From assembly GCF_018350175.1 (NCBI RefSeq), contig NC_058381.1, positions 39,990,001 through 40,054,000 of the forward strand: a stretch of DNA of 64,000 nucleotides, read 5' to 3'. Numbering within the stretch: position 1 is the first letter of the stretch; each line of letters begins with the position of its first letter. The position numbers and the translations under genes are program-made. Below, in pieces: positions 16,800-64,000 of the stretch. Origin of the DNA: Felis catus (lineage: Eukaryota). The notes beneath the pieces were generated by a model. The model saw only the letters and a program-made list of their open reading frames with translations, did not search any database and was not told the origin of the DNA.

Positions 16800-16919
16800 G
16801 GTATGAAACGGTGGATGTTCTGTGTGGGCCTCCAGGACAATGAGATTCTCAAGTGGAAATCTTCTTCTCCCAACTCTACTGAAGAGCTGTCATCATCACG
16901 TCCAGGGTTATTTTCTTGC

Positions 16920-23882: not shown

Positions 23883-23916
23883 ATTGGTCTAAACTCCGGG
23901 GGTCCAGCGCATAAAA
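23883..23916 (+). promoter_or_regulatory. Core promoter of the array genes: inverted CCAAT (ATTGG) plus CATAAAA TATA-like box, conserved in all 10 copies
   Basis: ATTGG at 23883-23887; CATAAAA at 23910-23916, 86 bp upstream of the ATG. Same offset in B1 (35924-35930). Confidence 0.65.
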
Positions 23917-23995
23917 GCCCCAGAACCGAAGGAAGCACCAGAATCTGACAACCTCACCTCCGGACAGGACCTGCCCACCCTCCACCCCAGACACC

Positions 23996-24514
23996 ATGAC
24001 CCACTCGTGCTGCTCCTCTTGCTGCCAGCCTACGTGCTGCAGGACCACCTGCTGCNNNNNNNNNNNNNNNNNNNNNNNNNNNNNNNNNNNNNNNNNNNNN
24101 NNNNNNNNNNNNNNNNNNNNNNNNNNNNNNNNNNNNNNNNNNNNNNNNNNNNNNNNNNNNNNNNNNNNNNNNNNNNNNNNNNNNNNNNNNNNNNNNNNNN
24201 NNNNNNCCAGCGGCTGTGGACACAACTGCGGTGGGTCTAGCGGCTGTGGGTCGAGCTGCTGCCAGCCTTGCTGCCGCCCAACTTGCTGTCACACCACCTG
24301 CTGCCGGACCACCTGCTGCCAACCCAGCTGTTGTGGGTCCAGCGGCTGTGGGTCCAGCAGCTGTGGACAAAACTGCTGTGGGTCCCACTGCTGCCAGCCA
24401 GTTTGCTGTACCCCCGTGTACTGCACGAGAACCTGCTACCACCCCACCTGCTGCTGCCTGCCTGGGTGCCTAGCCCAGGGCTCTGGATCCTGCTGCCAGC
24501 CTTCCTGCTGCTGA
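23996..24514 (+). CDS. KRTAP9: KRTAP9-family protein, A-type copy 1, 172 codons (151 nt masked)
   Basis: [21 protein letters not shown]-terminus and [21 protein letters not shown]-terminus are KRTAP9 hallmarks. Frame is preserved across the N block, but stops hidden in it cannot be excluded. Family-level symbol only. Confidence 0.85.
24056..24206. other. N block (151 nt) inside gene A1; identical blocks at 28037-28187 and 32010-32160
   Basis: Same length and same homologous position in three copies. Confidence 0.97.
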
Positions 24515-24959
24515 TTGCCTCGCCAAGAACCACCATCTGACTTGCCACTTGGGAATTGGTCACCGCCAAGCGTTGCGGAAAGCCAGCCCGCAATCCCCAA
24601 CATCTCGGTTAGTCGCCTGCCTGTCTACCATCTCGTGAACCGGCCCGATGAAGTTGTGGACCGCTTCTCCCTGATTCGCTTCTTCTTTCCTTCCTCTGGG
24701 TCATGTGCCAGCTTCACCCATCCTGATACAGAGTGAGGATCTCTGTTTGGTCTCCATAGTCAAGAACTTTATCCTGTCCCTCTAAATACGTCAGCGAAAC
24801 AACTCCTCAGGAATGACCTATAACTCGTGGAAACTGCTGAAAGCCCACACGGGTATGTTTCCTTTCTCGGTGTACTCATGAAGCTTGTACGCCTCTTGCT
24901 GCCTGTCATGTTCCCTTTCAATGTCTCCCTAGACGCGGGGAGTCTCACCTGTATCTCTT

Positions 24960-24965
24960 AATAAA
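24960..24965 (+). terminator. Polyadenylation signal AATAAA of the array genes (in every copy, e.g. 37076-37081 for B1)
   Basis: AATAAA ~445 bp after the ancestral stop, followed by a GT-rich downstream element (TGTCT(T/A)TGTGTTTTTG). Confidence 0.75.
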
Positions 24966-27005
24966 TCCTAGTCATTTGGAATCCCGTACTGTCTTTGTGT
25001 TTTTGTACCCTGTTTCCAATGCGAGGTTTTGTACGTACATTTTACATCACGTGCAGTGTCCGTGTGGAGCCATACACGGTCCTCCACAAGTCATTATGCG
25101 CATTTTCAGCTGAGGAGATTTCACGGTGGAATGTCGCACAGCTGGCATGGACACACTCGGATCCAAGACTGTGGTTCGGGCGCTTGCTGAAGCGCACTTA
25201 CGTTCAGATCTCCAGACGTGGTAGCAGACACCCTTAGTCTCAGCACCAGCAACGTGTCCATCCGAGGCCTGCTTTGACCGCACAAGTGTTACTCTCCTGT
25301 CCAGGCGGGCCATCACTGGCACTACATTGTAGACATCAGTGTCCTACAACTCAGCCACAGCAGCCATATGTGAGGACGGCGGGACCTGCCCTTTAGAGCC
25401 CTGGGGAACACGGGATGCTCCTGTTGCCTTGGGTGGCATCCGGCCCCTCAGCACTCTTCTGCCTCACATACAGGTGAGCCTGCGGTGTCCTCGTGAGCAA
25501 CAGAGGCCGCTGAACACGCTTGTGTTTGGGTCGTGCATATCACATTCTTGTTTGGCCTCCTCGTCCCCAGGACCTAATGGTATAGTAAAATGGCATCATG
25601 TGATTTTCTGCCAAACCTATGTATCTCCCCTCCCGTAAGGCAGTTTGTCATGGTGATCAAAATGTTGCCCAGAGAGTTGATGAAGCATGGTGTCAGGGCC
25701 AGAGAGATCGTGCAATGGGCACGTAGGACTTTGAGTACTCCATGAGCTCTGAACCATCTAAGGAAACAGAATAAGCTCTGGTGTATTGTGGAGGAAGTGT
25801 GAGCAACCGAGGGGGGAAAAAACGATGCCTGCTCCGTGGGGGTGAGGAGAATGTGAGGAAGAGAAAAGAGACAACAACGTGTGCATTCCTAGGAGTCGAG
25901 GGCGAAGGCTGGTGCTCCTGGTCCAGAGCCACTGGTGCCGCATCAGCACTCAGGGCTGTGAGGCCGATTCAGGCTCTGAGAGGAATAGGAGACAGGGCCC
26001 CGGGTCCCTTCCTGGGAGCAGTGGAGGGACCTCTGATGAGCTTCGAAGGCCCCTATGCAGGACACATGCCACCATTGGAGACTAGGTACCCAGGATGCTC
26101 TGGAGAGACTGCCAAGGCCAAACGTGCCTACCGCTGCTGGTTCTCAAGAGCGCCATGTTGGCAAACTGAGACGAAAACCTGACGCGACCCATGTTTCCGA
26201 ATATTTGCTGGATGTTGACTAAATGCTTCATAAGCATTCACTTTAATTCTTGGAGGAACTTACAAAGTAGGTATTAAGGTTCCCATTGTAGAGGTGAGGA
26301 AATTGAGACTGAGTGGGGTAAAGGAATGTCAGAGTTTGGTTTTCCAGAAGCTCCTCTTAAGTAAAGAGTCCAGGAATGTGGATTCGTTGGGGAGATCATA
26401 TCAAACTGGTCAGGGTGTAGGGAAGTTTCGCAGGGGAGAAACACTTTGAGGACAGCATCATAGTTTCCAATAAAAGCATTAACATGAAAAGTGTCCCTGA
26501 AACAATACAGCACGCAAACACACGCACACGCACACACAAACACACACAGATGTTGAGATCCACTTATTTCACCCATGAGGGACCTGGAGTCTTTGTAAAC
26601 CAACTGTCCAGAAGCAAGGGTCGAGTGTATTTTCTCCGTGTGGCATGCTCAGGCAGCCTGACTTTCTGCTGTGCGTGAAAAGAGCACGTACGCATTGAGG
26701 TGCAGAGCTGGTAGGCAGAAGTTGTCCCAAACACACCAGTACCCAAGAGATAGGTTTGGTGGCTTCAGACATCTTTGGCAGACTATGGTTTTCGCCACTC
26801 ATTGCACTATGTTCTTTATTTGCCAGGCGGATGGACAAAATAATTGCAAGAAACAGGAGAAGATGGTGGAATATGAAGGAGGGATGAGGAGGAGTAGGGA
26901 GAAAAGGAGAAGGGGGGGAGGAAGAAAGGAAGCATAGAAGGAAGGGGGGAATGATGAGGAGAGGAAGAAAGGGAGTAGAAGAAAGAAAGAAAATAAAGAA
27001 TGAAG

Positions 27006-27061
27006 GGAAGGAAGGAAGGAAGGAAGGAAGGAAGGAAGGAAGGAAGGAAGGAAGGAAGGAA
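27006..27061 (+). repeat. (GGAA)14 microsatellite; (GGAA)12 at 30987-31034; only (GGAA)3 in B units
   Basis: Counted directly. The 8-bp difference matches the 3981 vs 3973 bp period difference. Confidence 0.9.
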
Positions 27062-27976
27062 AGAAGGGACGGTAGGAGGAAGGGATGGACAGGCATGCAG
27101 GGAGGAAGGGAGAAAGGCAGAAAAAGAAAGACAGCCTGACAGAAAAAAGAAACAGCAACCATAAATAAAGATGTAATGAGCTACTTGAGGACACAGACGA
27201 GGCTATCTAACAAGTTTAGGACTAGAGTCCCCAACTCACCTGGTTTTGCCCATAATGCCCCCGCTTTCTGCCCCTGAAAGCTCCAAATCCTGTGAAAGCA
27301 TTCGATCCTAGGTAAATCAGGGCTACTGGTCAATCCCCCACCTGCTTTGCTTCTGTCTGGCCATGTGGCAGAGAAAACACCAGACATTGGCTACGCAAGG
27401 GTCTTTGATTGAACTGAGATACGCAAGTGGGGTTGGGTGCTACAGGCGACCGATATGCCTATGGGAGTCTTCAATCCGAGTTGTGTCGGGAAACCTACCT
27501 GGACTCTGGGACCTACCACATTTGTCCCAAGGACATATCAGCATCATGCCCGTCACCTCAGAGATACTCGCAATCCACATACCTTCTAAGGACAAAGACT
27601 GGGGAGGGAAAACTGCTGTGACCCTAGCCACCCCAGCAGAACGTGATCACACGATGGATGCCATGATCACTGAAACAAGAACGATGCTGCTGATGGGCCC
27701 ACCTTCCTCTCGTTGGAAAATGTTGCTGTGAGTTATTCTCAAATAGGAAACCATTAATCACATATTTGTAACGATTCCTAACATTTAGGAAACAACTTCC
27801 TCATTTATGATTCCCCAGTGACTACAGAAAACGATGTAAACACCAACAAGGAAAGTCCTGCCCATTGGTCTAAACTCCGGGGGTCCAGCGCATAAAAGCC
27901 CCAGAACCGAAGGAAGCACCAGAATCTGACAACCTCACCTCCGGACAGGACCTGCCCACCCTCCACCCCAGACACC

Positions 27977-28495
27977 ATGACCCACTCGTGCTGCTCCTCT
28001 TGCTGCCAGCCTACGTGCTGCAGGACCACCTGCTGCNNNNNNNNNNNNNNNNNNNNNNNNNNNNNNNNNNNNNNNNNNNNNNNNNNNNNNNNNNNNNNNN
28101 NNNNNNNNNNNNNNNNNNNNNNNNNNNNNNNNNNNNNNNNNNNNNNNNNNNNNNNNNNNNNNNNNNNNNNNNNNNNNNNNNNNNNNNCCAGCGGCTGTGG
28201 ACACAACTGCGGTGGGTCTAGCGGCTGTGGGTCGAGCTGCTGCCAGCCTTGCTGCCGCCCAACTTGCTGTCACACCACCTGCTGCCGGACCACCTGCTGC
28301 CAACCCAGCTGTTGTGGGTCCAGCGGCTGTGGGTCCAGCAGCTGTGGACAAAACTGCTGTGGGTCCCACTGCTGCCAGCCAGTTTGCTGTACCCCCGTGT
28401 ACTGCACGAGAACCTGCTACCACCCCACCTGCTGCTGCCTGCCTGGGTGCCTAGCCCAGGGCTCTGGATCCTGCTGCCAGCCTTCCTGCTGCTGA
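27977..28495 (+). CDS. KRTAP9: KRTAP9-family protein, A-type copy 2, 172 codons (partly masked)
   Basis: Visible sequence identical to copy A1. Confidence 0.85.
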
Positions 28496-31400
28496 TTGCC
28501 TCGCCAAGAACCACCATCTGACTTGCCACTTGGGAATTGGTCACCGCCAAGCGTTGCGGAAAGCCAGCCCGCAATCCCCAACATCTCGGTTAGTCGCCTG
28601 CCTGTCTACCATCTCGTGAACCGGCCCGATGAAGTTGTGGACCGCTTCTCCCTGATTCGCTTCTTCTTTCCTTCCTCTGGGTCATGTGCCAGCTTCACCC
28701 ATCCTGATACAGAGTGAGGATCTCTGTTTGGTCTCCATAGTCAAGAACTTTATCCTGTCCCTCTAAATACGTCAGCGAAACAACTCCTCAGGAATGACCT
28801 ATAACTCGTGGAAACTGCTGAAAGCCCACACGGGTATGTTTCCTTTCTCGGTGTACTCATGAAGCTTGTACGCCTCTTGCTGCCTGTCATGTTCCCTTTC
28901 AATGTCTCCCTAGACGCGGGGAGTCTCACCTGTATCTCTTAATAAATCCTAGTCATTTGGAATCCCGTACTGTCTTTGTGTTTTTGTACCCTGTTTCCAA
29001 TGCGAGGTTTTGTACGTACATTTTACATCACGTGCAGTGTCCGTGTGGAGCCATACACGGTCCTCCACAAGTCATTATGCGCATTTTCAGCTGAGGAGAT
29101 TTCACGGTGGAATGTCGCACAGCTGGCATGGACACACTCGGATCCAAGACTGTGGTTCGGGCGCTTGCTGAAGCGCACTTACGTTCAGATCTCCAGACGT
29201 GGTAGCAGACACCCTTAGTCTCAGCACCAGCAACGTGTCCATCCGAGGCCTGCTTTGACCGCACAAGTGTTACTCTCCTGTCCAGGCGGGCCATCACTGG
29301 CACTACATTGTAGACATCAGTGTCCTACAACTCAGCCACAGCAGCCATATGTGAGGACGGCGGGACCTGCCCTTTAGAGCCCTGGGGAACACGGGATGCT
29401 CCTGTTGCCTTGGGTGGCATCCGGCCCCTCAGCACTCTTCTGCCTCACATACAGGTGAGCCTGCGGTGTCCTCGTGAGCAACAGAGGCCGCTGAACACGC
29501 TTGTGTTTGGGTCGTGCATATCACATTCTTGTTTGGCCTCCTCGTCCCCAGGACCTAATGGTATAGTAAAATGGCATCATGTGATTTTCTGCCAAACCTA
29601 TGTATCTCCCCTCCCGTAAGGCAGTTTGTCATGGTGATCAAAATGTTGCCCAGAGAGTTGATGAAGCATGGTGTCAGGGCCAGAGAGATCGTGCAATGGG
29701 CACGTAGGACTTTGAGTACTCCATGAGCTCTGAACCATCTAAGGAAACAGAATAAGCTCTGGTGTATTGTGGAGGAAGTGTGAGCAACCGAGGGGGGAAA
29801 AAACGATGCCTGCTCCGTGGGGGTGAGGAGAATGTGAGGAAGAGAAAAGAGACAACAACGTGTGCATTCCTAGGAGTCGAGGGCGAAGGCTGGTGCTCCT
29901 GGTCCAGAGCCACTGGTGCCGCATCAGCACTCAGGGCTGTGAGGCCGATTCAGGCTCTGAGAGGAATAGGAGACAGGGCCCCGGGTCCCTTCCTGGGAGC
30001 AGTGGAGGGACCTCTGATGAGCTTCGAAGGCCCCTATGCAGGACACATGCCACCATTGGAGACTAGGTACCCAGGATGCTCTGGAGAGACTGCCAAGGCC
30101 AAACGTGCCTACCGCTGCTGGTTCTCAAGAGCGCCATGTTGGCAAACTGAGACGAAAACCTGACGCGACCCATGTTTCCGAATATTTGCTGGATGTTGAC
30201 TAAATGCTTCATAAGCATTCACTTTAATTCTTGGAGGAACTTACAAAGTAGGTATTAAGGTTCCCATTGTAGAGGTGAGGAAATTGAGACTGAGTGGGGT
30301 AAAGGAATGTCAGAGTTTGGTTTTCCAGAAGCTCCTCTTAAGTAAAGAGTCCAGGAATGTGGATTCGTTGGGGAGATCATATCAAACTGGTCAGGGTGTA
30401 GGGAAGTTTCGCAGGGGAGAAACACTTTGAGGACAGCATCATAGTTTCCAATAAAAGCATTAACATGAAAAGTGTCCCTGAAACAATACAGCACGCAAAC
30501 ACACGCACACGCACACACAAACACACACAGATGTTGAGATCCACTTATTTCACCCATGAGGGACCTGGAGTCTTTGTAAACCAACTGTCCAGAAGCAAGG
30601 GTCGAGTGTATTTTCTCCGTGTGGCATGCTCAGGCAGCCTGACTTTCTGCTGTGCGTGAAAAGAGCACGTACGCATTGAGGTGCAGAGCTGGTAGGCAGA
30701 AGTTGTCCCAAACACACCAGTACCCAAGAGATAGGTTTGGTGGCTTCAGACATCTTTGGCAGACTATGGTTTTCGCCACTCATTGCACTATGTTCTTTAT
30801 TTGCCAGGCGGATGGACAAAATAATTGCAAGAAACAGGAGAAGATGGTGGAATATGAAGGAGGGATGAGGAGGAGTAGGGAGAAAAGGAGAAGGGGGGGA
30901 GGAAGAAAGGAAGCATAGAAGGAAGGGGGGAATGATGAGGAGAGGAAGAAAGGGAGTAGAAGAAAGAAAGAAAATAAAGAATGAAGGGAAGGAAGGAAGG
31001 AAGGAAGGAAGGAAGGAAGGAAGGAAGGAAGGAAAGAAGGGACGGTAGGAGGAAGGGATGGACAGGCATGCAGGGAGGAAGGGAGAAAGGCAGAAAAAGA
31101 AAGACAGCCTGACAGAAAAAAGAAACAGCAACCATAAATAAAGATGTAATGAGCTACTTGAGGACACAGACGAGGCTATCTAACAAGTTTAGGACTAGAG
31201 TCCCCAACTCACCTGGTTTTGCCCATAATGCCCCCGCTTTCTGCCCCTGAAAGCTCCAAATCCTGTGAAAGCATTCGATCCTAGGTAAATCAGGGCTACT
31301 GGTCAATCCCCCACCTGCTTTGCTTCTGTCTGGCCATGTGGCAGAGAAAACACCAGACATTGGCTACGCAAGGGTCTTTGATTGAACTGAGATACGCAAG

Positions 31401-31949
31401 TGGGGTTGGGTGCTACAGGCGACCGATATGCCTATGGGAGTCTTCAATCCGAGTTGTGTCGGGAAACCTACCTGGACTCTGGGACCTACCACATTTGTCC
31501 CAAGGACATATCAGCATCATGCCCGTCACCTCAGAGATACTCGCAATCCACATACCTTCTAAGGACAAAGACTGGGGAGGGAAAACTGCTGTGACCCTAG
31601 CCACCCCAGCAGAACGTGATCACACGATGGATGCCATGATCACTGAAACAAGAACGATGCTGCTGATGGGCCCACCTTCCTCTCGTTGGAAAATGTTGCT
31701 GTGAGTTATTCTCAAATAGGAAACCATTAATCACATATTTGTAACGATTCCTAACATTTAGGAAACAACTTCCTCATTTATGATTCCCCAGTGACTACAG
31801 AAAACGATGTAAACACCAACAAGGAAAGTCCTGCCCATTGGTCTAAACTCCGGGGGTCCAGCGCATAAAAGCCCCAGAACCGAAGGAAGCACCAGAATCT
31901 GACAACCTCACCTCCGGACAGGACCTGCCCACCCTCCACCCCAGACACC

Positions 31950-32468
31950 ATGACCCACTCGTGCTGCTCCTCTTGCTGCCAGCCTACGTGCTGCAGGACC
32001 ACCTGCTGCNNNNNNNNNNNNNNNNNNNNNNNNNNNNNNNNNNNNNNNNNNNNNNNNNNNNNNNNNNNNNNNNNNNNNNNNNNNNNNNNNNNNNNNNNNN
32101 NNNNNNNNNNNNNNNNNNNNNNNNNNNNNNNNNNNNNNNNNNNNNNNNNNNNNNNNNNNNCCAGCGGCTGCGGGCACAACTGCGGTGGGTCTAGCGGCTG
32201 TGGGTCGAGCTGCTGCCAGCCTTGCTGCCGCCCAACTTGCTGTCACACCACCTGCTGCCGGACCACCTGCTGCCAACCCAGCTGTTGTGGGTCCAGCGGC
32301 TGTGGGTCCAGCGGCTGTGGACAAAACTGCTGTGGGTCCCACTGCTGCCAGCCAGTTTGCTGTACCCCCGTGTACTGCACGAGAACCTGCTACCACCCCA
32401 CCTGCTGCTGCCTGCCTGGGTGCCTAACCCAGGGCTCTGGATCCTGCTGCCAGCCTTCCTGCTGCTGA
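31950..32468 (+). CDS. KRTAP9: KRTAP9-family protein, A-type copy 3, 172 codons (partly masked)
   Basis: Same architecture with a few substitutions ([13 protein letters not shown]); intact C-terminal domain. Confidence 0.85.
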
Positions 32469-34470
32469 TTGCCTCGCCAAGAACCACCATCTGACTTGCC
32501 ACTTGGGAATTGGTCACCGCCAAGCGTTGCGGAAAGCCAGCCCGCAATCCCCAACATCTCGGTTAGTCGCCTGCCTGTCTACCATCTTGTGAACCGGCCC
32601 GGATCAAGTTGTGGACCGCTTCTCCCTGATTCGCTTCCTCTTTCCTTCCTCTGGGTCATGTGCCAGCTTCACCCATCCTGATACAGAGTGAGGATCTCTG
32701 TTTGGTCTCCATAGTCAAGAACTTTATCCTGTCCCTCTAAATACGTCAGCGAAACAACTCCTCAGGAATGACCTATAACTCGTGGAAACTGCTGAAAGCC
32801 CACACGGGTATGTTTCCTTTCTCAGTGTACTCATGAAGCTTGTACGCCTCTTGCTGCCTGTCATGTTCCCTTTCAATGTCTCCCTAGACGCGGGGAGTCT
32901 CACCTGCATCTCTTAATAAATCCTAGTCATTTGGAATCCCGTACTGTCTATGTGTTTTTGTACCCTGCTTCCAATGCGAGGTTTTGTATGTACATTTTAC
33001 ATCACATGCAGTGTCCGTGTGGAGCCATACACGGTCCTCCACAAGTCATTATGCGCATTTTCAGCTGAGGAGATTTCACGGTGGAATGTCCCACAGCTGG
33101 CATGGACACACTCGGATCCAAGACTGTGGTTCGGGCGCTTGCTGAAGCGCACTTACGTTCAGATCTCCAGACGTGGTAGCAGACACCCTTAGTCTCAGCA
33201 CCAGCAACGTGTCCATCCGAGGCCTGCTTTGACCGCACAAGTGTTACTCTCCTGTCCAGGCGGGCCATCACTGGCACTACATTGTAGACATCAGTGTCCT
33301 ACAACTCAGCCACAGCAGCCATATGTGAGGACGGCGGGACCTGCCCTTTAGAGCCCTGGGGAACACGGGATGCTCCTGTTGCCTTGGGTGGCATCCGGCC
33401 CCTCAGCACTCTTCTGCCTCACATACAGGTGAGCCTGCGGTGTCCTCGTGAGCCACAGAGGCAGCTGAACACGCTTGTGTTTGGGTCGTGCATATCACAT
33501 TCTTGTTTGGCCTCCTCGTCCCCAGGACCTAATGGTATAGTAAAATGGCATCATGTGATTTTCTGCCAAACCTATGCATCTCCCCTCCCGTAAGGCAGTT
33601 TGTCATGGTGATCAAAATGTTGCCCAGAGAGTTGATGAAGCATGGTGTCAGGGCCAGAGAGATCGTGCAATGGGCACGTAGGACTTTGAGTACTCCATGA
33701 GCTCTGAACCATCTAAGGAAACAGAATAAGCTCTGGTATATTGTGGAGGAAGTGTGAGCAACCGAGGGGGGAAAAAACGATGCCTGCTCCGTGGGGGTGA
33801 GGAGAATGTGAGGAAGCAAAAAGAGACAACAACGTGTGCATTCCTAGGAGTCGAGGACGAAGGCTGGTGCTCCTGGTCCAGAGCCACTGGTGCCGCGTCA
33901 GCACTCAGGGCTGTGAGGCCGATTCAGGCTCTGAGAGGAATAGGAGACAGGGCCCCGGGTCCCTTCCTGGGAGCAGTGGAGGGACCTCTGATGAGCTTCG
34001 AAGGCCCCTATGCAGGACACATGCCACCATTGGAGACTAGGTACCCAGGATGCTCTGGAGAGACTGCCAAGGCCAAACGTGCCTACCGCTGCTGGTTCTC
34101 AAGAGCGCCGTGTTGGCAAACTGAGATGAAAACCTGACGCGACCCATGTTTCCGAATATTTGCTGGATGTTGACTAAATCCTTCATGAGCATTCCCTTCA
34201 ATTCTTGGAGGGATTTGCAAAGTAGGTATTAAGGTTCCCATTGTAGAGGTGAGGAAATTGAGACTGAGTGGGGTAAAGGAATGTCAGAGTTTGGTTTTCC
34301 AGAAGCTCCTCTTAAGTAAAGAGTCCAGGAATGTGGATTCTTTGGGGAGGTCATATCACACTGGTCCGAGTGTGGGGAAGTGTCACAGGGAAGAAACACT
34401 TTGAGGCCAGCCTCACAGTTTGCAACCAAAGCTTTAACCTGGAAGGTATCTCAGAAACGGTACAACTCCA

Positions 34471-34526
34471 AACACGCACACGCGCGCGCGCACGCGATCG
34501 CGCACACACACGCAGACGCGCGCGCG

Positions 34527-34562
<36 letters not shown>
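34471..34562. repeat. Compound (CG)n/(CA)n alternating purine-pyrimidine tract, one per B-type spacer
   Basis: ACACGCACACGCGCGCGCGCACGCGATCGCGCACACACACGCAGACGCGCGCG(CG)CACG(CA)14-16. Homologues near 38631, 42791, 46951, 51106, 55266, 59424 and 63582. Confidence 0.92.
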
Positions 34563-34565
<3 letters not shown>

Positions 34566-38685: not shown

Positions 38686-38724
<39 letters not shown>

Positions 38725-42845: not shown

Positions 42846-42884
<39 letters not shown>

Positions 42885-47004: not shown

Positions 47005-47039
<35 letters not shown>

Positions 47040-51160: not shown

Positions 51161-51199
<39 letters not shown>

Positions 51200-52644: not shown

Positions 52645-53127
52645 ATGACCCACTCGTGCTGCTCCTCTTGCTGCCAGCCTACGTGCTGCAGGACCACCTG
52701 CTGCCGGACCACCTGCTGCCAGCCCAGCGGCTGTGGGTCCAGCGGCTATGGGTCGAGCTGCTGCCAGCCTTGCTGCCGCCCAACTTGCTGTCACACCACC
52801 TGCTGCCGGACCACCTGCTGCCAGCCCAGCTGCTGTGGGTGTAGCGGCTGTGGACACAACTGCGGTGGGTCTAGCGGCTGTGGTTCCAGCTGCTGCCAGC
52901 CTTGCTGCCGCCCAGCTTGCTGTCACACCACCTGCTGCCGGACCACCTGCTGCCAGCCCAGCTGCTGTGGGTCCAGCGGCTGCGGACACAACTGCGGTGG
53001 GTCTAGCGGCTGTGGGTCGAGCTGCTGCCAGCCTTGCTGCTGCCCAACTTGCTGTCATACCACCTGCTGCCGGACCACCTGCTGCCAGCCCAGCTGTTGT
53101 GGGTCCAGCGGCTGTGGACAAAACTGA
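52645..53127 (+). CDS. KRTAP9: KRTAP9-family B-type copy 5 (truncated, 160 aa)
   Basis: Same translation as B1, with both premature TGAs. Confidence 0.85.
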
Positions 53128-55320
53128 TGTGGGTCCCGCTGCTGCCAGCCAGGTTGCTGAACCCCCGTGTACTGCACGAGAACCTGCTACCACCCCACCT
53201 GCTGCGGCCTGCCTGGGTGCCTAGCCCAGGGCTCTGGATCCTGCTGCCAGCCTTCCTGCTGCTGATTGCCTCGCCAAGAACCACCATCTGACTTGCCACT
53301 TGGGAATTGGTCACCGCCAAGCGTTGCGGAAAGCCAGCCCGCAATCCCCAACATCTCGGTTAGTCGCCTGCCTGTCTACCATCTTGTGAACCGGCCCGAT
53401 GAAGTTGTGGACCGCTTCTCCCTGATTCGCTTCTTCTTTCCTTCCTCTGCGTCATGTGCCAGCTTCACCCATCCTGATACAGAGTGAGGATCTCTGTTTG
53501 GTCTCCATAGTCAAGAACTTTATCCTGTCCCTCTAAATACGTCAGCGAAACAACTCCTCAGGAATGACCTATAACTCGTGGAAACTGCTGAAAGCCCACA
53601 CGGGTATGTTTCCTTTCTCGGTGTACTCATGAAGCTTGTACGCCTCTTGCTGCCTGTCATGTTCCCTTTCAATGTCTCCCTAGACGCGGGGAGTCTCACC
53701 TGCATCTCTTAATAAATCCTAATCATTTGGAATCCCGTACTGTCTATGTGTTTTTGTACCCTGTTTCCAATGCGAGGTTTTGTACGTACATTTTACATCA
53801 CATGCAGTGTCCGTGTGGAGCCATACACGGTCCTCCACAAGTCATTATGCGCATTTTCAGCTGAGGAGATTTCACGGTGGAATGTCCCACAGCTGGCATG
53901 GACACACTCGGATCCAAGACTGTGGTTCGGGCGCTTGCTGAAGCGCACTTACGTTCAGATCTCCAGACGTGGTAGCAGACACCCTTAGTCTCAGCACCAG
54001 CAACGTGTCCATCCGAGGCCTGCTTTGACCGCACAAGTGTTACTCTCCTGTCCAGGCGGGCCATCACTGGCACTACGTTGTAGACATCAGTGTCCTACAA
54101 CTCAGCCACAGCAGCCATATGTGAGGACGGCGGGACCTGCCCTTTAGAGCCCTGGGGAACACGGGATGCTCCTGTTGCCTTGGGTGGCATCCGGCCCCTC
54201 AGCACTCTTCTGCCTCACATACAGGTGAGCCTGCGGTGTCCTCGTGAGCCACAGAGGCAGCTGAACACGCTTGTGTTTGGGTCGTGCATATCACATTCTT
54301 GTTTGGCCTCCTCGTCCCCAGGACCTAATGGTATAGTAAAATGGCATCATGTGATTTTCTGCCAAACCTATGCATCTCCCCTCCCGTAAGGCAGTTTGTC
54401 ATGGTGATCAAAATGTTGCCCAGAGAGTTGATGAAGCATGGTGTCAGGGCCAGAGAGATCGTGCAATGGGCACGTAGGACTTTGAGTACTCCATGAGCTC
54501 TGAACCATCTAAGGAAACAGAATAAGCTCTGGTATATTGTGGAGGAAGTGTGAGCAACCGAGGGGGGAAAAAACGATGCCTGCTCCGTGGGGGTGAGGAG
54601 AATGTGAGGAAGCAAAAAGAGACAACAACGTGTGCATTCCTAGGAGTCGAGGACGAAGGCTGGTGCTCCTGGTCCAGAGCCACTGGTGCCGCGTCAGCAC
54701 TCAGGGCTGTGAGGCCGATTCAGGCTCTGAGAGGAATAGGAGACAGGGCCCCGGGTCCCTTCCTGGGAGCAGTGGAGGGACCTCTGATGAGCTTCGAAGG
54801 CCCCTATGCAGGACACATGCCACCATTGGAGACTAGGTACCCAGGATGCTCTGGAGAGACTGCCAAGGCCAAACGTGCCTACCGCTGCTGGTTCTCAAGA
54901 GCGCCGTGTTGGCAAACTGAGATGAAAACCTGACGCGACCCATGTTTCCGAATATTTGCTGGATGTTGACTAAATCCTTCATGAGCATTCCCTTCAATTC
55001 TTGGAGGGATTTGCAAAGTAGGTATTAAGGTTCCCATTGTAGAGGTGAGGAAATTGAGACTGAGTGGGGTAAAGGAATGTCAGAGTTTGGTTTTCCAGAA
55101 GCTCCTCTTAAGTAAAGAGTCCAGGAATGTGGATTCTTTGGGGAGGTCATATCACACTGGTCCGAGTGTGGGGAAGTGTCACAGGGAAGAAACACTTTGA
55201 GGCCAGCCTCACAGTTTGCAACCAAAGCTTTAACCTGGAAGGTATCTCAGAAACGGTACAACTCCAAACACGCACACGCGCGCGCGCACGCGATCGCGCA
55301 CACACACGCAGACGCGCGCG

Positions 55321-55357
<37 letters not shown>

Positions 55358-56802
55358 TGAGATTCTCTTATTTCAGCCATGAGGGAGCTGGAGTCTTTAT
55401 AAACCCACTCTCCAGAAGCAAGGGTTGAGTGTGTTTTCTCCGTGTGGCATGCTCAGGCAGCCTGACATTCTGCTGCGCGTGAAAAGGGCACTTAGGCATT
55501 GAGGTGCAGAGCTGGTAGGCAGAAGTTGTCCCAAACACACCAGTACCCAAGAGATAGGGTTGGTGGCTTCAGACGTCTTTGGCAGACTATGGTTGTCACC
55601 ATTCATTCCACTATGTTCTGAATTAGCCGGGCGGATGGAGAAAATCATTGGAAGAAACAGAAGAAGATGGTGGAATATGAATGGGGGGATGAGGAGAGGA
55701 GTAGGGAGAAAAGGAGAAGGGAGGGAGGAAGAAAGGAAGCATAGAAGGAAGGGGGCAGGGAGGAAGCGAGGGAGAAAGGGAGGAGAAGAAAGAGAGAAAC
55801 TAAAGAATGAAGGGAAGGAAGGAAGGCAAGAAGGCACGGTGTGAGGAAGGGATGGGCAGGCATGCAGGGAGGAAGGGAGAAAGGCAGAAAAAGAAAGACA
55901 GCCTGACAGAAAAAAGAAAGAGCAACCATAAATAAAGATGTAATGAGCTACGTGAGGACACTGACGAGGCTAGCTAACAAGGTTAGGACTAGAGTCCCCA
56001 ACTCACCTGGTTTTGCCCAAACTGCCCCCGCCTTTATGGCCCTGAAAGCCCCCCCCTCCGGTGAAAGCGTTCGACCCGAGGAAAATCAGGGGTCCTGGTC
56101 AACAAGGACGTACATTGACTGATGGTTGCTTAGTCCCAGGGTACTGCTGCTGCTTCTCCCCACCTGCTTTGCTTCTGCCTCGCCATGTGGCAGAGAAAAC
56201 CCCAGACATCGGCTACGCAAGGGTCTTTGATTGAACTGAGATACGCAGGTGGGGTTGGGTGCTACAGGAGACAGATAACGCCTGTGGGAGTCTTGAATCC
56301 GGCTTCTGTGGGGAAACGGAACTGGGCTCAGGGAACTACCACATCTGTCCCAGTGAACATATCAGCATCGTGCCCCTCACCTCAGAGATACTCGCAATCC
56401 ACTTACAGTCTAAGGGCAAAGACTGGGGAGGGAACACTGCTGTGAGCCTAGCCACCCCAGCAGAACGTGATCACACGATGGATGCCATGATCACTGAAAC
56501 AAGAACGATGCTGCTGATGTGCCCACCTTCCTCGCGTTGGAAAATGTTGCTGTGAGTTATTGTCAAATAGGAAACCATTAGACACTTATTTTGTAACGAT
56601 TCCTAACATTTAGGAAACAGCTTCCTCGTTTATGATTCCCCCAGTGACTACGGAAAACGATGTAAACACCAACAAGGAAAGTCCTGCCCATTGGCCTAAC
56701 CTTCGGGGGTCCAGCGCATAAAAGCCCCAGAACCGGAGGAGGCACCAGAATCTGACAACCTCACCTCCGGACAGGACCCGCCCACCCTCCACCCCAGACA
56801 CC

Positions 56803-57285
56803 ATGACCCACTCGTGCTGCTCCTCTTGCTGCCAGCCTACGTGCTGCAGGACCACCTGCTGCCGGACCACCTGCTGCCAGCCCAGCGGCTGTGGGTCCAG
56901 CGGCTATGGGTCGAGCTGCTGCCAGCCTTGCTGCCGCCCAACTTGCTGTCACACCACCTGCTGCCGGACCACCTGCTGCCAGCCCAGCTGCTGTGGGTGT
57001 AGCGGCTGTGGACACAACTGCGGTGGGTCTAGCGGCTGTGGTTCCAGCTGCTGCCAGCCTTGCTGCCGCCCAGCTTGCTGTCACACCACCTGCTGCCGGA
57101 CCACCTGCTGCCAGCCCAGCTGCTGTGGGTCCAGCGGCTGCGGACACAACTGCGGTGGGTCTAGCGGCTGTGGGTCGAGCTGCTGCCAGCCTTGCTGCTG
57201 CCCAACTTGCTGTCATACCACCTGCTGCCGGACCACCTGCTGCCAGCCCAGCTGTTGTGGGTCCAGCGGCTGTGGACAAAACTGA
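56803..57285 (+). CDS. KRTAP9: KRTAP9-family B-type copy 6 (truncated, 160 aa)
   Basis: Same translation as B1, with both premature TGAs. Confidence 0.85.
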
Positions 57286-59478
57286 TGTGGGTCCCGCTGC
57301 TGCCAGCCAGGTTGCTGAACCCCCGTGTACTGCACGAGAACCTGCTACCACCCCACCTGCTGCGGCCTGCCTGGGTGCCTAGCCCAGGGCTCTGGATCCT
57401 GCTGCCAGCCTTCCTGCTGCTGATTGCCTCGCCAAGAACCACCATCTGACTTGCCACTTGGGAATTGGTCACCGCCAAGCGTTGCGGAAAGCCAGCCCGC
57501 AATCCCCAACATCTCGGTTAGTCGCCTGCCTGTCTACCATCTTGTGAACCGGCCCGATGAAGTTGTGGACCGCTTCTCCCTGATTCGCTTCTTCTTTCCT
57601 TCCTCTGCGTCATGTGCCAGCTTCACCCATCCTGATACAGAGTGAGGATCTCTGTTTGGTCTCCATAGTCAAGAACTTTATCCTGTCCCTCTAAATACGT
57701 CAGCGAAACAACTCCTCAGGAATGACCTATAACTCGTGGAAACTGCTGAAAGCCCACACGGGTATGTTTCCTTTCTCGGTGTACTCATGAAGCTTGTACG
57801 CCTCTTGCTGCCTGTCATGTTCCCTTTCAATGTCTCCCTAGACGCGGGGAGTCTCACCTGCATCTCTTAATAAATCCTAATCATTTGGAATCCCGTACTG
57901 TCTATGTGTTTTTGTACCCTGTTTCCAATGCGAGGTTTTGTACGTACATTTTACATCACATGCAGTGTCCGTGTGGAGCCATACACGGTCCTCCACAAGT
58001 CATTATGCGCATTTTCAGCTGAGGAGATTTCACGGTGGAATGTCCCACAGCTGGCATGGACACACTCGGATCCAAGACTGTGGTTCGGGCGCTTGCTGAA
58101 GCGCACTTACGTTCAGATCTCCAGACGTGGTAGCAGACACCCTTAGTCTCAGCACCAGCAACGTGTCCATCCGAGGCCTGCTTTGACCGCACAAGTGTTA
58201 CTCTCCTGTCCAGGCGGGCCATCACTGGCACTACGTTGTAGACATCAGTGTCCTACAACTCAGCCACAGCAGCCATATGTGAGGACGGCGGGACCTGCCC
58301 TTTAGAGCCCTGGGGAACACGGGATGCTCCTGTTGCCTTGGGTGGCATCCGGCCCCTCAGCACTCTTCTGCCTCACATACAGGTGAGCCTGCGGTGTCCT
58401 CGTGAGCCACAGAGGCAGCTGAACACGCTTGTGTTTGGGTCGTGCATATCACATTCTTGTTTGGCCTCCTCGTCCCCAGGACCTAATGGTATAGTAAAAT
58501 GGCATCATGTGATTTTCTGCCAAACCTATGCATCTCCCCTCCCGTAAGGCAGTTTGTCATGGTGATCAAAATGTTGCCCAGAGAGTTGATGAAGCATGGT
58601 GTCAGGGCCAGAGAGATCGTGCAATGGGCACGTAGGACTTTGAGTACTCCATGAGCTCTGAACCATCTAAGGAAACAGAATAAGCTCTGGTATATTGTGG
58701 AGGAAGTGTGAGCAACCGAGGGGGGAAAAAACGATGCCTGCTCCGTGGGGGTGAGGAGAATGTGAGGAAGCAAAAAGAGACAACAACGTGTGCATTCCTA
58801 GGAGTCGAGGACGAAGGCTGGTGCTCCTGGTCCAGAGCCACTGGTGCCGCGTCAGCACTCAGGGCTGTGAGGCCGATTCAGGCTCTGAGAGGAATAGGAG
58901 ACAGGGCCCCGGGTCCCTTCCTGGGAGCAGTGGAGGGACCTCTGATGAGCTTCGAAGGCCCCTATGCAGGACACATGCCACCATTGGAGACTAGGTACCC
59001 AGGATGCTCTGGAGAGACTGCCAAGGCCAAACGTGCCTACCGCTGCTGGTTCTCAAGAGCGCCGTGTTGGCAAACTGAGATGAAAACCTGACGCGACCCA
59101 TGTTTCCGAATATTTGCTGGATGTTGACTAAATCCTTCATGAGCATTCCCTTCAATTCTTGGAGGGATTTGCAAAGTAGGTATTAAGGTTCCCATTGTAG
59201 AGGTGAGGAAATTGAGACTGAGTGGGGTAAAGGAATGTCAGAGTTTGGTTTTCCAGAAGCTCCTCTTAAGTAAAGAGTCCAGGAATGTGGATTCTTTGGG
59301 GAGGTCATATCACACTGGTCCGAGTGTGGGGAAGTGTCACAGGGAAGAAACACTTTGAGGCCAGCCTCACAGTTTGCAACCAAAGCTTTAACCTGGAAGG
59401 TATCTCAGAAACGGTACAACTCCAAACACGCACACGCGCGCGCGCACGCGATCGCGCACACACACGCAGACGCGCGCG

Positions 59479-59515
<37 letters not shown>

Positions 59516-60960
59516 TGAGATTCTCTTATTTCAGCCATGAGGGAGCTGGAGTCTTTATAAACCCACTCTCCAGAAGCAAGGGTTGAGTGTGTTTTCTCCG
59601 TGTGGCATGCTCAGGCAGCCTGACATTCTGCTGCGCGTGAAAAGGGCACTTAGGCATTGAGGTGCAGAGCTGGTAGGCAGAAGTTGTCCCAAACACACCA
59701 GTACCCAAGAGATAGGGTTGGTGGCTTCAGACGTCTTTGGCAGACTATGGTTGTCACCATTCATTCCACTATGTTCTGAATTAGCCGGGCGGATGGAGAA
59801 AATCATTGGAAGAAACAGAAGAAGATGGTGGAATATGAATGGGGGGATGAGGAGAGGAGTAGGGAGAAAAGGAGAAGGGAGGGAGGAAGAAAGGAAGCAT
59901 AGAAGGAAGGGGGCAGGGAGGAAGCGAGGGAGAAAGGGAGGAGAAGAAAGAGAGAAACTAAAGAATGAAGGGAAGGAAGGAAGGCAAGAAGGCACGGTGT
60001 GAGGAAGGGATGGGCAGGCATGCAGGGAGGAAGGGAGAAAGGCAGAAAAAGAAAGACAGCCTGACAGAAAAAAGAAAGAGCAACCATAAATAAAGATGTA
60101 ATGAGCTACGTGAGGACACTGACGAGGCTAGCTAACAAGGTTAGGACTAGAGTCCCCAACTCACCTGGTTTTGCCCAAACTGCCCCCGCCTTTATGGCCC
60201 TGAAAGCCCCCGCCTCCGGTGAAAGCGTTCGACCCGAGGAAAATCAGGGGTCCTGGTCAACAAGGACGTACATTGACTGATGGTTGCTTAGTCCCAGGGT
60301 ACTGCTGCTGCTTCTCCCCACCTGCTTTGCTTCTGCCTCGCCATGTGGCAGAGAAAACCCCAGACATCGGCTACGCAAGGGTCTTTGATTGAACTGAGAT
60401 ACGCAGGTGGGGTTGGGTGCTACAGGAGACAGATAACGCCTGTGGGAGTCTTGAATCCGGCTTCTGTGGGGAAACGGAACTGGGCTCAGGGAACTACCAC
60501 ATCTGTCCCAGTGAACATATCAGCATCGTGCCCCTCACCTCAGAGATACTCGCAATCCACTTACAGTCTAAGGGCAAAGACTGGGGAGGGAACACTGCTG
60601 TGAGCCTAGCCACCCCAGCAGAACGTGATCACACGATGGATGCCATGATCACTGAAACAAGAACGATGCTGCTGATGTGCCCACCTTCCTCGCGTTGGAA
60701 AATGTTGCTGTGAGTTATTGTCAAATAGGAAACCATTAGACACTTATTTTGTAACGATTCCTAACATTTAGGAAACAGCTTCCTCGTTTATGATTCCCCC
60801 AGTGACTACGGAAAACGATGTAAACACCAACAAGGAAAGTCCTGCCCATTGGCCTAACCTTCGGGGGTCCAGCGCATAAAAGCCCCAGAACCGGAGGAGG
60901 CACCAGAATCTGACAACCTCACCTCCGGACAGGACCCGCCCACCCTCCACCCCAGACACC

Positions 60961-61443
60961 ATGACCCACTCGTGCTGCTCCTCTTGCTGCCAGCCTACGT
61001 GCTGCAGGACCACCTGCTGCCGGACCACCTGCTGCCAGCCCAGCGGCTGTGGGTCCAGCGGCTATGGGTCGAGCTGCTGCCAGCCTTGCTGCCGCCCAAC
61101 TTGCTGTCACACCACCTGCTGCCGGACCACCTGCTGCCAGCCCAGCTGCTGTGGGTGTAGCGGCTGTGGACACAACTGCGGTGGGTCTAGCGGCTGTGGT
61201 TCCAGCTGCTGCCAGCCTTGCTGCCGCCCAGCTTGCTGTCACACCACCTGCTGCCGGACCACCTGCTGCCAGCCCAGCTGCTGTGGGTCCAGCGGCTGCG
61301 GACACAACTGCGGTGGGTCTAGCGGCTGTGGGTCGAGCTGCTGCCAGCCTTGCTGCTGCCCAACTTGCTGTCATACCACCTGCTGCCGGACCACCTGCTG
61401 CCAGCCCAGCTGTTGTGGGTCCAGCGGCTGTGGACAAAACTGA
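60961..61443 (+). CDS. KRTAP9: KRTAP9-family B-type copy 7 (truncated, 160 aa)
   Basis: Same translation as B1, with both premature TGAs. Confidence 0.85.
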
Positions 61444-63636
61444 TGTGGGTCCCGCTGCTGCCAGCCAGGTTGCTGAACCCCCGTGTACTGCACGAGAACC
61501 TGCTACCACCCCACCTGCTGCGGCCTGCCTGGGTGCCTAGCCCAGGGCTCTGGATCCTGCTGCCAGCCTTCCTGCTGCTGATTGCCTCGCCAAGAACCAC
61601 CATCTGACTTGCCACTTGGGAATTGGTCACCGCCAAGCGTTGCGGAAAGCCAGCCCGCAATCCCCAACATCTCGGTTAGTCGCCTGCCTGTCTACCATCT
61701 TGTGAACCGGCCCGATGAAGTTGTGGACCGCTTCTCCCTGATTCGCTTCTTCTTTCCTTCCTCTGCGTCATGTGCCAGCTTCACCCATCCTGATACAGAG
61801 TGAGGATCTCTGTTTGGTCTCCATAGTCAAGAACTTTATCCTGTCCCTCTAAATACGTCAGCGAAACAACTCCTCAGGAATGACCTATAACTCGTGGAAA
61901 CTGCTGAAAGCCCACACGGGTATGTTTCCTTTCTCGGTGTACTCATGAAGCTTGTACGCCTCTTGCTGCCTGTCATGTTCCCTTTCAATGTCTCCCTAGA
62001 CGCGGGGAGTCTCACCTGCATCTCTTAATAAATCCTAATCATTTGGAATCCCGTACTGTCTATGTGTTTTTGTACCCTGTTTCCAATGCGAGGTTTTGTA
62101 CGTACATTTTACATCACATGCAGTGTCCGTGTGGAGCCATGCACGGTCCTCCACAAGTCATTATGCGCATTTTCAGCTGAGGAGATTTCACGGTGGAATG
62201 TCCCACAGCTGGCATGGACACACTCGGATCCAAGACTGTGGTTCGGGCGCTTGCTGAAGCGCACTTACGTTCAGATCTCCAGACGTGGTAGCAGACACCC
62301 TTAGTCTCAGCACCAGCAACGTGTCCATCCGAGGCCTGCTTTGACCGCACAAGTGTTACTCTCCTGTCCAGGCGGGCCATCACTGGCACTACGTTGTAGA
62401 CATCAGTGTCCTACAACTCAGCCACAGCAGCCATATGTGAGGACGGCGGGACCTGCCCTTTAGAGCCCTGGGGAACACGGGATGCTCCTGTTGCCTTGGG
62501 TGGCATCCGGCCCCTCAGCACTCTTCTGCCTCACATACAGGTGAGCCTGCGGTGTCCTCGTGAGCCACAGAGGCAGCTGAACACGCTTGTGTTTGGGTCG
62601 TGCATATCACATTCTTGTTTGGCCTCCTCGTCCCCAGGACCTAATGGTATAGTAAAATGGCATCATGTGATTTTCTGCCAAACCTATGCATCTCCCCTCC
62701 CGTAAGGCAGTTTGTCATGGTGATCAAAATGTTGCCCAGAGAGTTGATGAAGCATGGTGTCAGGGCCAGAGAGATCGTGCAATGGGCACGTAGGACTTTG
62801 AGTACTCCATGAGCTCTGAACCATCTAAGGAAACAGAATAAGCTCTGGTATATTGTGGAGGAAGTGTGAGCAACCGAGGGGGGAAAAAACGATGCCTGCT
62901 CCGTGGGGGTGAGGAGAATGTGAGGAAGCAAAAAGAGACAACAACGTGTGCATTCCTAGGAGTCGAGGACGAAGGCTGGTGCTCCTGGTCCAGAGCCACT
63001 GGTGCCGCGTCAGCACTCAGGGCTGTGAGGCCGATTCAGGCTCTGAGAGGAATAGGAGACAGGGCCCCGGGTCCCTTCCTGGGAGCAGTGGAGGGACCTC
63101 TGATGAGCTTCGAAGGCCCCTATGCAGGACACATGCCACCATTGGAGACTAGGTACCCAGGATGCTCTGGAGAGACTGCCAAGGCCAAACGTGCCTACCG
63201 CTGCTGGTTCTCAAGAGCGCCGTGTTGGCAAACTGAGATGAAAACCTGACGCGACCCATGTTTCCGAATATTTGCTGGATGTTGACTAAATCCTTCATGA
63301 GCATTCCCTTCAATTCTTGGAGGGATTTGCAAAGTAGGTATTAAGGTTCCCATTGTAGAGGTGAGGAAATTGAGACTGAGTGGGGTAAAGGAATGTCAGA
63401 GTTTGGTTTTCCAGAAGCTCCTCTTAAGTAAAGAGTCCAGGAATGTGGATTCTTTGGGGAGGTCATATCACACTGGTCCGAGTGTGGGGAAGTGTCACAG
63501 GGAAGAAACACTTTGAGGCCAGCCTCACAGTTTGCAACCAAAGCTTTAACCTGGAAGGTATCTCAGAAACGGTACAACTCCAAACACGCACACGCGCGCG
63601 CGCACGCGATCGCGCACACACACGCAGACGCGCGCG

Positions 63637-63673
<37 letters not shown>

Positions 63674-64000
63674 TGAGATTCTCTTATTTCAGCCATGAGG
63701 GAGCTGGAGTCTTTATAAACCCACTCTCCAGAAGCAAGGGTTGAGTGTGTTTTCTCCGTGTGGCATGCTCAGGCAGCCTGACATTCTGCTGCGCGTGAAA
63801 AGGGCACTTAGGCATTGAGGTGCAGAGCTGGTAGGCAGAAGTTGTCCCAAACACACCAGTACCCAAGAGATAGGGTTGGTGGCTTCAGACGTCTTTGGCA
63901 GACTATGGTTGTCACCATTCATTCCACTATGTTCTGAATTAGCCGGGCGGATGGAGAAAATCATTGGAAGAAACAGAAGAAGATGGTGGAATATGAATGG

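Follow-up and report, generated by a model that had tools for sequence, protein, structure and literature searches.

Why does one locus of the cat genome hold a long run of near-identical hair-protein genes, and does the run reflect a recent gain in dosage of a working gene or the turnover of an older repeat? The locus was analyzed in a stretch of 64,000 nucleotides (hereafter the window) and in extended coordinates beyond its right edge. With moderate confidence, we conclude that unequal crossing-over, together with GC-biased gene conversion, has likely enlarged and homogenized the array. On this view, the copy with the greatest amplification is probably a truncated passenger, not one favored for a gain in dosage.

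Organization of the Array

The array has 11 intronless KRTAP9-like genes, one per unit, arranged head-to-tail with three of type A followed by eight of type B (table 1). Each unit comprises, in order, an upstream spacer with promoter, the gene, and a 3′ flank. Ten KRTAP-type ATGs are in the window. In extended coordinates, the gene B11 starts just past it at 65119, with the end of the array near 66,897. Successive ATGs are separated by 3981, 3973, 4060, 4160, 4159, 4156, 4160, 4158, 4158, and 4158 bases, and the length of a (CACG)/(CA)n microsatellite explains most of the differences in period. The array has a GC content of 0.52–0.55 and a CpG observed/expected ratio of 0.45–0.50 versus 0.11–0.21 in the adjoining flanks. 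All matches found in the genome are at this locus (at least 16 of 16 and at least 19 of 19 in two genome searches).

Table 1. Features of the array and its left edge, in positions of the window
Feature	Position	Strand	Remarks
P20, diverged KRTAP9-like pseudogene unit, left edge	20398..22614	+	∼76–78% identical to array unit, AT-richer
Gene-conversion tract in P20 flank (368 bp)	22071..22438	+	exact 42- and 325-bp blocks equal to B4 38075–38442; surroundings 60–84% identical
Array of ∼4.0–4.2-kb units	22623..64000	+	continues ∼2.9 kb past window edge
A1, KRTAP9-like gene, 172 codons, C-terminal tail intact	23996..24514	+	151 internal bases masked; stop possible there
A2, KRTAP9-like gene, like A1	27977..28495	+	151 internal bases masked
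A3, A-type gene of chimeric unit 3	31950..32468	+	172 codons, 151 masked bases
CATAAAA, TATA-like box of B4	35924..35930	+	also in A and most local KRTAP9-like paralogues
B4, truncated KRTAP9-like ORF, 160 codons, 35% Cys	36010..36492	+	premature TGA at 36490–36492; ancestral stop 36628–36630
Second in-frame TGA, lost tail of B4 (codon 172)	36523..36525	+	common to all B copies
AATAAA, polyadenylation signal of B4	37076..37081	+	sole one in 1.34 kb scanned, homologous last unit
(CACG)/(CA)n microsatellite	38633..38721	+	fixed place in every unit
B5, truncated gene	40170..40652	+	
B6, truncated gene	44329..44811	+	
B7, truncated gene	48485..48967	+	
B8, truncated gene	52645..53127	+	
B9, truncated gene	56803..57285	+	
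B10, truncated gene	60961..61443	+	
B11, truncated gene	L001:1119-1601		past window

Copies within a class are nearly indistinguishable. Units 1 and 2 have no substitutions over readable sites, and the seven complete B units differ by one substitution in total, plus length differences in (CA)n and poly-C, while A and B differ at 183 aligned sites. Some of the near-identity of the B units could be an artifact of polishing a collapsed array during assembly. Unit 3 is chimeric, with an A-type gene, a patchwork 3′ region in which A and B alleles alternate to about +1430 and sequence is B-type from +1606, and a B-type spacer.

An earlier note on this DNA described a tandem KRTAP9 array of at least ten copies with an eleventh cut by the edge, consisting of three A-type (∼3.98-kb) and seven B-type (∼4.16-kb) units. 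The array is real, and identity among units is far beyond chance. The ten ATGs and two classes stand, but the total is 11 rather than open-ended, just two periods are A-type, and the third unit is chimeric. The note's macrosatellite-like organization is borne out by multi-kb, head-to-tail, near-identical units at a single locus. The B class has spread very recently, with a single substitution among seven complete units.

Other copies are nearby. About 25 kb downstream is an inverted copy of the unit that is 97–98% identical on either side of an L1 insertion, with mismatches concentrated beside the L1; among the best 40 of 7052 candidates scored, the best other genome match of this L1 is 90%. 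Directly upstream is a second recent array, a 23.4-kb KRTAP4 pair in about five copies. A divergent AT-richer tract of ∼47 bases, present in a single X19 contig and a single X23 read, has a full match to none of 13 local copies.

Identity of the Genes

The KRTAP9-like identity assigned by the earlier note is supported by composition, profile, and position. The B protein, encoded by an intronless ORF, is 35% Cys, scores 80 bits with Pfam Keratin_B2_2 (cut-off, 27), and has the cysteine and pentapeptide-repeat pattern of KRTAP9 (PF13885, E = 1.2e-22, over the curated cut-off). In an Atlas ranking, an intact local paralogue was KAP9-9-like (0.97), KAP4-12-like (0.96), and KAP9-1-like (0.96). Homologue searches returned no match, and an exact look-up of five proteins against a 15-billion collection matched none. 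A complete C-terminal tail is typical of KRTAP9; A1–A3 have it and all eight B copies do not, so that the most fitting name for B is a truncated gene derived from KRTAP9. Subfamily names of neighboring genes are presumed from their N-termini. Gene order across 414 kb places the array in the KRTAP1-4/9/16/17 cluster, the content of which is given in the accessible text of PMC8657448.

Loss of the Tail in B Genes

All eight B copies have two in-frame premature stops that remove a 46-residue tail, which is intact in A1–A3 and in nearby paralogues. Read through these stops, B genes have 206 codons; their proteins are thus shorter because of the premature stops alone. Relative to A1, the B tail has five non-silent changes (the two stops and three missense) and no silent change. 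The tails of A1 and the inverted copy are identical, and that of another paralogue has one silent change. Ahead of the stop the pattern differs. The first 160 B codons have nine silent and eight amino-acid-changing codons relative to a co-linear intact paralogue, and with about 101 silent and 379 amino-acid-changing sites, the ratio is about 0.25, which fits ongoing selection on a short B protein.

Because the promoter, poly(A) signal, and open 160-codon frame are kept, B genes would probably continue to encode a product, a short protein rich in cysteine. The CATAAAA box was ruled out as an array-specific TATA mutation, being common to most local paralogues. In 1/100 of one single-cell RNA run, tissue not stated, about six reads are in the 3′ UTR, and from about 20 bases downstream of the poly(A) signal onward there are none. 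At one site, two of four RNA reads have the B4–B10 allele. RNA-labeled runs were not taken as expression because their contigs run past the poly(A) signal, and DNA carry-over is possible.

These features leave some room for the alternative that the B protein of 160 residues works as a cross-linker despite lacking the tail and that its amplification was selected as a gain in dosage affecting properties of hair, whisker, or claw. The frame is open without a frameshift, cysteine-rich, and well above the profile cut-off, the promoter box and poly(A) signal are retained, amino-acid changes ahead of the stop are too few, and a few RNA reads fall within the UTR. Junction-dependent nonsense-mediated decay usually spares single-exon transcripts. 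A nonsense allele of KRTAP20-2 is associated with wool curvature (PMC8657448). Nevertheless, two stops and three missense changes have accumulated in a tail that is near-invariant among intact paralogues, and conversion from those paralogues alone could keep the 5′ part clean. The KRTAP4 block next door has also been amplified recently, which suggests that the region is generally unstable. We regard selection on a working B protein as rather unlikely.

A Signature of GC-Biased Conversion across the Unit

The noncoding DNA of the unit shows, from its substitution pattern, a strong signature of GC-biased gene conversion. In the 3′ flank, the array stem has 127 W>S and 37 S>W changes versus 201:261 in four pooled paralogues (Fisher P = 3e-14), and at non-CpG sites the counts are 92:34 versus 164:221 (P = 3e-9). 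In the upstream spacer, W>S:S>W is 73:19 for B, whereas six paralogues together give 141:206 (P = 2e-11). Changes were polarized by parsimony with paralogues about 25% diverged as outgroups, and the pooled counts share outgroups. P20 is the sister lineage of the 3′ flank of the array. With the converted tract excluded, the array exceeds P20 in W>S (75 vs. 40 of 563 sites; P = 8e-4) and has fewer S>W (17 vs. 46 of 377 sites; P = 2e-4), whereas W>W (13 vs. 7) and S>S (10 vs. 10) are little changed. Equilibrium GC is 0.75 for the array and 0.37 for P20. Transversions follow the same direction (A>C and T>G, 27+22; C>A and G>T, 4+13). Conversion tracts extend into neighboring paralogues, as the exact 368-bp tract in the P20 flank makes visible. 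The unit has thus likely been enriched in G and C by long recombination between copies.

The bias could instead have been acquired by a single copy, at a long-lived allelic hotspot or through germline hypomethylation, and followed by one recent amplification. Allelic recombination hotspots give the same W>S signature, the B units are nearly identical, and tips of the inverted copy (9:14, W>S:S>W) and of A (11:15) have no GC bias. However, the bias spans a 2-kb 3′ flank and a 1.4-kb spacer and persists in B after the A/B split (18:2 for changes derived in B, vs. 11:14 for those derived in A, in the spacer). Non-allelic conversion is directly visible in the 368-bp tract and in chimeric unit 3, and the inverted copy resembles the array right to the border of an L1 that looks old. 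Hypomethylation cannot account for the bias at non-CpG sites, nor for the transversions A>C and T>G. Bias gained as a single copy is therefore quite unlikely.

The stem of the array unit is 0.13 substitutions per site, similar to the paralogue tips (0.11–0.14). Together with the strong GC bias and the conversion tracts, this stem length suggests that the lineage of the unit is old and long recombining, and just the expansion or homogenization of B is very recent. On this reading, copies are near-identical because a unit with a longer history of recombination has lately turned over.

Copy Number and Assembly

In one independent whole-genome run (X7), a B-allele contig across both stops has a depth of 293.5 with no other letters, compared with 8.24 at the junction where the array ends and 4.5+4.6 in a flank pair. 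B contigs in this other animal are therefore roughly 30-fold (∼26–36×) deeper than single-copy contigs. Depth of a contig does not equal a copy number, and the comparison covers one deep run and ∼0.8 kb of unique flank. In run X11, the unit was assembled at a depth of 16.2 and the flank was not assembled. At least half of the sampled array words are present in 20 of 24 listed runs, and all are present in 18 of those. The depth in X7 argues against over-expansion and suggests that copy number differs between animals or that the assembly collapses a longer array. Over-expansion from one or two real copies, which the earlier note had named as a risk and which draws on the inability of most reads to separate seven 4.16-kb units with one substitution, is already largely refuted by these depths and word counts, which point to more copies rather than fewer, and is highly improbable.

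A Proposed History and Its Implications

Turnover by unequal crossing-over and GC-biased conversion, the reading we prefer, would have proceeded as follows. A unit running from one KRTAP9 gene through its 3′ flank to the promoter that follows would have been multi-copy since long ago, and repeated non-allelic recombination would have fixed G/C over A/T across the entire unit. A nonsense mutation may then have removed the tail of one copy, with decay of the tail afterwards, and the tail-less copy would have spread very recently through unequal exchange. At present, copy number would vary among animals or a longer array would be collapsed in the assembly. The picture of the array as simply a recent increase in the dosage of a functional gene does not accord with eight of 11 copies having two premature stops and a decaying tail, nor with the unit's stem length and strong GC bias.

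A more far-reaching version is a long shot. It holds that the array is an undescribed cat macrosatellite, highly variable in copy number (∼8 to more than 30), whose age is tens of millions of years and whose high GC was brought about by biased conversion. A KRTAP9 copy with two nonsense mutations would have overtaken it recently and would still be expressed, as a tail-less protein that alters fiber cross-linking according to copy number. If true, B copy number would be a hidden structural determinant of coat texture missed by SNP arrays. Regardless, the array is a measurable case of GC-biased gene conversion remodeling a whole 4-kb gene unit, for which the AT-rich neighboring paralogues serve as controls. 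It is also a case of an array overtaken by a broken gene copy. For cat genetics, it marks a site within the main hair-protein cluster that is probably either a large copy-number variant or under-assembled and that would escape short-read and array studies. Should the truncated B protein be made, copy number is a testable candidate for coat texture.

Comparison with Known Systems

Literature searches found no description of this array, though felid structural-variation work in a subscription journal may cover it; no literature was found on copy-number variation of KRTAP in Felis catus, and neither KRTAP nor keratin occurs in a cat-genome review. The array resembles gene-containing macrosatellites such as D4Z4/DUX4, RNU2, and RS447/USP17. 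In these, a unit of several kb that carries a single gene recurs head-to-tail, the copies are near-identical and richer in GC and CpG than the flanks, and the edge units are diverged. The array differs from them in that its cargo is a structural hair gene, mostly truncated, its CpG observed/expected ratio is under the usual island threshold, and its copy-number variation is suggested by a single run.

Like the KRTAP9 subfamily, the genes of the array are intronless, ∼35% Cys, have Keratin_B2/B2_2 repeats, and are located between KRTAP4-like and KRTAP16/17-like genes. Expansion and conversion of KRTAP genes are already known. Lineage-specific KRTAP9 expansions include 50 genes in sloth, 19 in cow, and two in panda (PMC4180150 Table 1), and dog has seven (PMC2528016 Table 1); felids are absent from these two tables. 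Unlike in published expansions, whole 4-kb units and flanks are near-identical here, and eight of 11 copies are double-nonsense truncations. The array is also in line with the concerted evolution and GC-biased gene conversion of high-cysteine KRTAPs, in which paralogue conversion, raised GC, and homogenized coding regions are reported (in the accessible text of Wu 2008, PMC2528016; Khan 2014, PMC4180150; bioRxiv 10.1101/282418), and coding tails of local paralogues are almost identical. As far as their accessible text extends, those studies measure coding sequence, and flanks of KRTAP1 are reported not to be homogenized (bioRxiv 10.1101/282418). In contrast to KRTAP1 as described there, the noncoding flanks of this array are homogenized and have a polarized W>S excess.

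Array anatomy and gene identity

The feature is a gene-containing macrosatellite composed mostly of truncated KRTAP9-like genes and carrying a strong signature of GC-biased conversion. Self-comparison of the window and an ORF listing bear out the ten plus-strand KRTAP-type genes at ~4-kb spacing described in the earlier note. The eleventh unit that it placed at the window edge is real and is also the last, as extended sequence (the window plus 150 kb downstream and 200 kb upstream from the same genome) closes the array at 11 genes, ~2.9 kb beyond the edge. Successive periods are 3981, 3973, 4060, and then 4156-4160 bases. Units 1 and 2 have no substitutions between them at readable sites; 151 bases are masked in each A-type gene (172 codons), and intactness of these genes refers to the remaining sequence only. 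In unit 3, the gene is A-type and the spacer B-type, with a patchwork 3' region between them. The seven complete B units (genes of 160 codons) have one substitution among them, plus differences in microsatellite and homopolymer length. In two genome searches, with at least 16 and at least 19 matches, all those listed (16 of 16 and 19 of 19) are confined to this locus. Array GC is 0.52-0.55 and CpG observed/expected is 0.45-0.50, relative to a CpG ratio of 0.11-0.21 in adjacent flanks. At the end of the terminal unit (last ~110 bases), several sites differ from other units, with most changes leading to A/T, as would be seen in an edge copy that escapes homogenisation.

Assignment to KRTAP9, as previously proposed, is well supported by position and composition, in the sense of KRTAP9-like. 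All five proteins scanned match Pfam Keratin_B2_2 and Keratin_B2, cysteine content is 34-36%, and an Atlas ranking of an intact local paralogue places KAP9-9-like first with KAP4-12-like narrowly behind. By gene order, the array has KRTAP4-like genes on one side and KRTAP16/17-like genes on the other, names that we presume from N-termini, with the content of the KRTAP cluster taken from part of PMC8657448. Its surroundings include a second recent tandem array, whose unit has two KRTAP4-like genes (198 and 183 codons) and whose copies are 99.5-99.95% identical, with GC of 0.447 and CpG observed/expected of 0.30.

Locations of features around the array (L, pieces of extended sequence outside the window; G000:C37, the window's own contig)
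Feature	Location	Strand	Description
Gene related to upstream KRTAP4-like array	window 2459-3055		
Inter-array KRTAP4-like sequences (short or disrupted)	window 8621-8839 and 16577-17200	minus	72-codon ORF; SINE-adjacent remnant
Inverted intact KRTAP9-like gene	L003:5003-9742	minus	167 codons; ~25 kb downstream of array
Upstream KRTAP4-like array	G000:C37:39,866,059-39,986,271 (L023-L035)		just upstream of window; ~5 copies of 23.3-23.4-kb unit
Further KRTAP9-like genes or pseudogenes	L001-L006 (extended window 67,500-120,000)	both	~eight
Another GC- and CpG-raised patch, between KRTAP9-like block and KRTAP16-like gene	L008-L009 (extended window 136,000-144,000)		GC up to 0.51; CpG observed/expected 0.39-0.45
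End of terminal unit	L001:2780-2900		
Variant 3' UTR	L001:1833-1879		

Truncation of B-type genes

All eight B genes end at a stop in codon 161 and carry another in-frame stop in codon 172; with both stops ignored, the frame has 206 codons and is co-linear with an intact paralogue. In the 46-codon tail, all five B-specific changes relative to A1 (the first A-type gene) are non-silent, whereas the tails of A1 and the inverted copy are identical, suggesting that selection had ceased to act on the tail long before the spread of B. In the part preceding the stop, nine silent and eight amino-acid-changing codons separate B from the co-linear paralogue, a ratio of ~0.25 per site that could reflect either ongoing selection or conversion by intact copies. 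B genes also retain a CATAAAA box and an AATAAA signal. A selected role for the short B protein is the main rival to a neutral history.

GC-biased substitution and non-allelic exchange

Non-coding flanks were aligned with local paralogues (seven rows for the 3' flank and nine for the upstream spacer), and substitutions were scored solely at sites on which all aligned outgroups agreed. For the 3' flank, 127 weak-to-strong (W>S) and 37 strong-to-weak (S>W) changes fall on the array stem versus 201 and 261 in four pooled paralogues (p=3e-14). Non-CpG counts are 92:34 and 164:221, respectively (p=3e-9). Spacer counts are 73:19 in B and 141:206 in six paralogues; after the A/B split, they are 18:2 in B and 11:14 in A. 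Relative to P20, a diverged sister pseudogene unit at the left edge, and with the converted tract left out, the array has 75 versus 40 W>S, 17 versus 46 S>W, 13 versus 7 W>W, and 10 versus 10 S>S changes. Equilibrium GC is 0.75 for the array and 0.37 for P20. Since S>W changes are suppressed to about a third, we infer that the bias was active over much of the stem (0.13 substitutions per site) rather than in one brief burst. Counting against this, the A tip (11:15) and the inverted-copy tip (9:14) have no bias, outgroups are paralogues, and pooled counts have outgroups in common.

Non-allelic exchange is visible at the locus. The P20 flank has exact 42-bp and 325-bp blocks matching the array within sequence that is elsewhere 60-84% identical. 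The inverted copy is 97-98% identical to the array in its 3' flank and only ~78% in its upstream region. Just past the poly(A) signal, its array-like flank is split by a 2.2-kb L1 that seems to contain an internal inversion; over 501 bases of this L1, the best other genomic match is 90% among 40 of 7052 candidates scored. Mismatches with the array are concentrated beside the L1 and near zero farther out, which fits conversion persisting after insertion. From the L1, the multi-copy state appears to be very roughly 10-20 million years old. For the B units, at a rate of 0.86e-8 per generation with 3.8-year generations (from part of PMC9290555), a single substitution across 29 kb translates to an age of roughly 15,000 years; the error is wide, and assembly polishing could bias the estimate towards youth.

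Copy number and transcription

Sampled words of a B stretch occur in other sequencing runs: at least half in 20 of 24 listed runs and all in 18, across nine studies, though one run could be the source sample. One run labelled feline metagenome has half of the words, and the SINE type looks felid; the host is probably a cat. Four runs were compared over 2141 bases spanning both stops, the UTR, the array end, and ~0.8 kb of flank. In run X7, the contig across both stops reaches a depth of 293.5 without alternative letters; the main 3'-flank contig reaches 282.9. Comparison depths are 8.24 (array-end junction), 4.5 and 4.6 (flank pair), and 10.8 (paralogue contig). The ratio of ~26-36, versus eight B copies in this assembly, speaks against the over-expansion that the earlier note had allowed for and hints at copy-number variation or collapse, although contig depth is not a copy number. 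Run X11 yielded one 2282-base unit contig (depth 16.2), with the flank not assembled.

In RNA run X19, some B-type contigs run beyond the poly(A) signal, making DNA carry-over possible. In X23 (single-cell RNA, tissue not stated, 1/100 read), about six UTR reads end near that signal, a weak sign of transcription. A B-type copy seen in one contig of X19 and one read of X23 departs from the array within ~47 bases of 3' UTR by 11 letters and a 1-base deletion. Most of these letters are A/T in place of G/C, like the ancestral state, and the variant has no full match among 13 local copies.

Proposed history and comparison with other arrays

Most likely, the unit was multi-copy and recombining over a long time, which would have raised its GC content. 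One copy would then have lost its tail, and this tail-less copy would recently have spread via unequal exchange. Array anatomy, stops, substitution bias, and conversion tracts are observed directly; the age of the unit, the sequence of events, neutrality, and copy-number variation are inferred.

We found no account of this array in the openly accessible literature. The available portion of a cat-genome review does not mention KRTAP or keratin (PMC11216403). Parts of PMC4180150 and PMC2528016 describe how KRTAPs expand, evolve in concert, and, in high-cysteine coding sequences, undergo GC-biased conversion; their tables, as far as available, include no felid. Several of the further KRTAP9-like copies downstream have nearly identical coding tails and proximal promoters and flanks that are only ~73-85% identical, like KRTAP1, for which available parts of bioRxiv 10.1101/282418 describe homogenisation limited to coding regions. 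In contrast to the AT enrichment of expanding arrays, two KRTAP clusters among them, reported in part of PMC10463633, the present unit has locally gone in the opposite direction.
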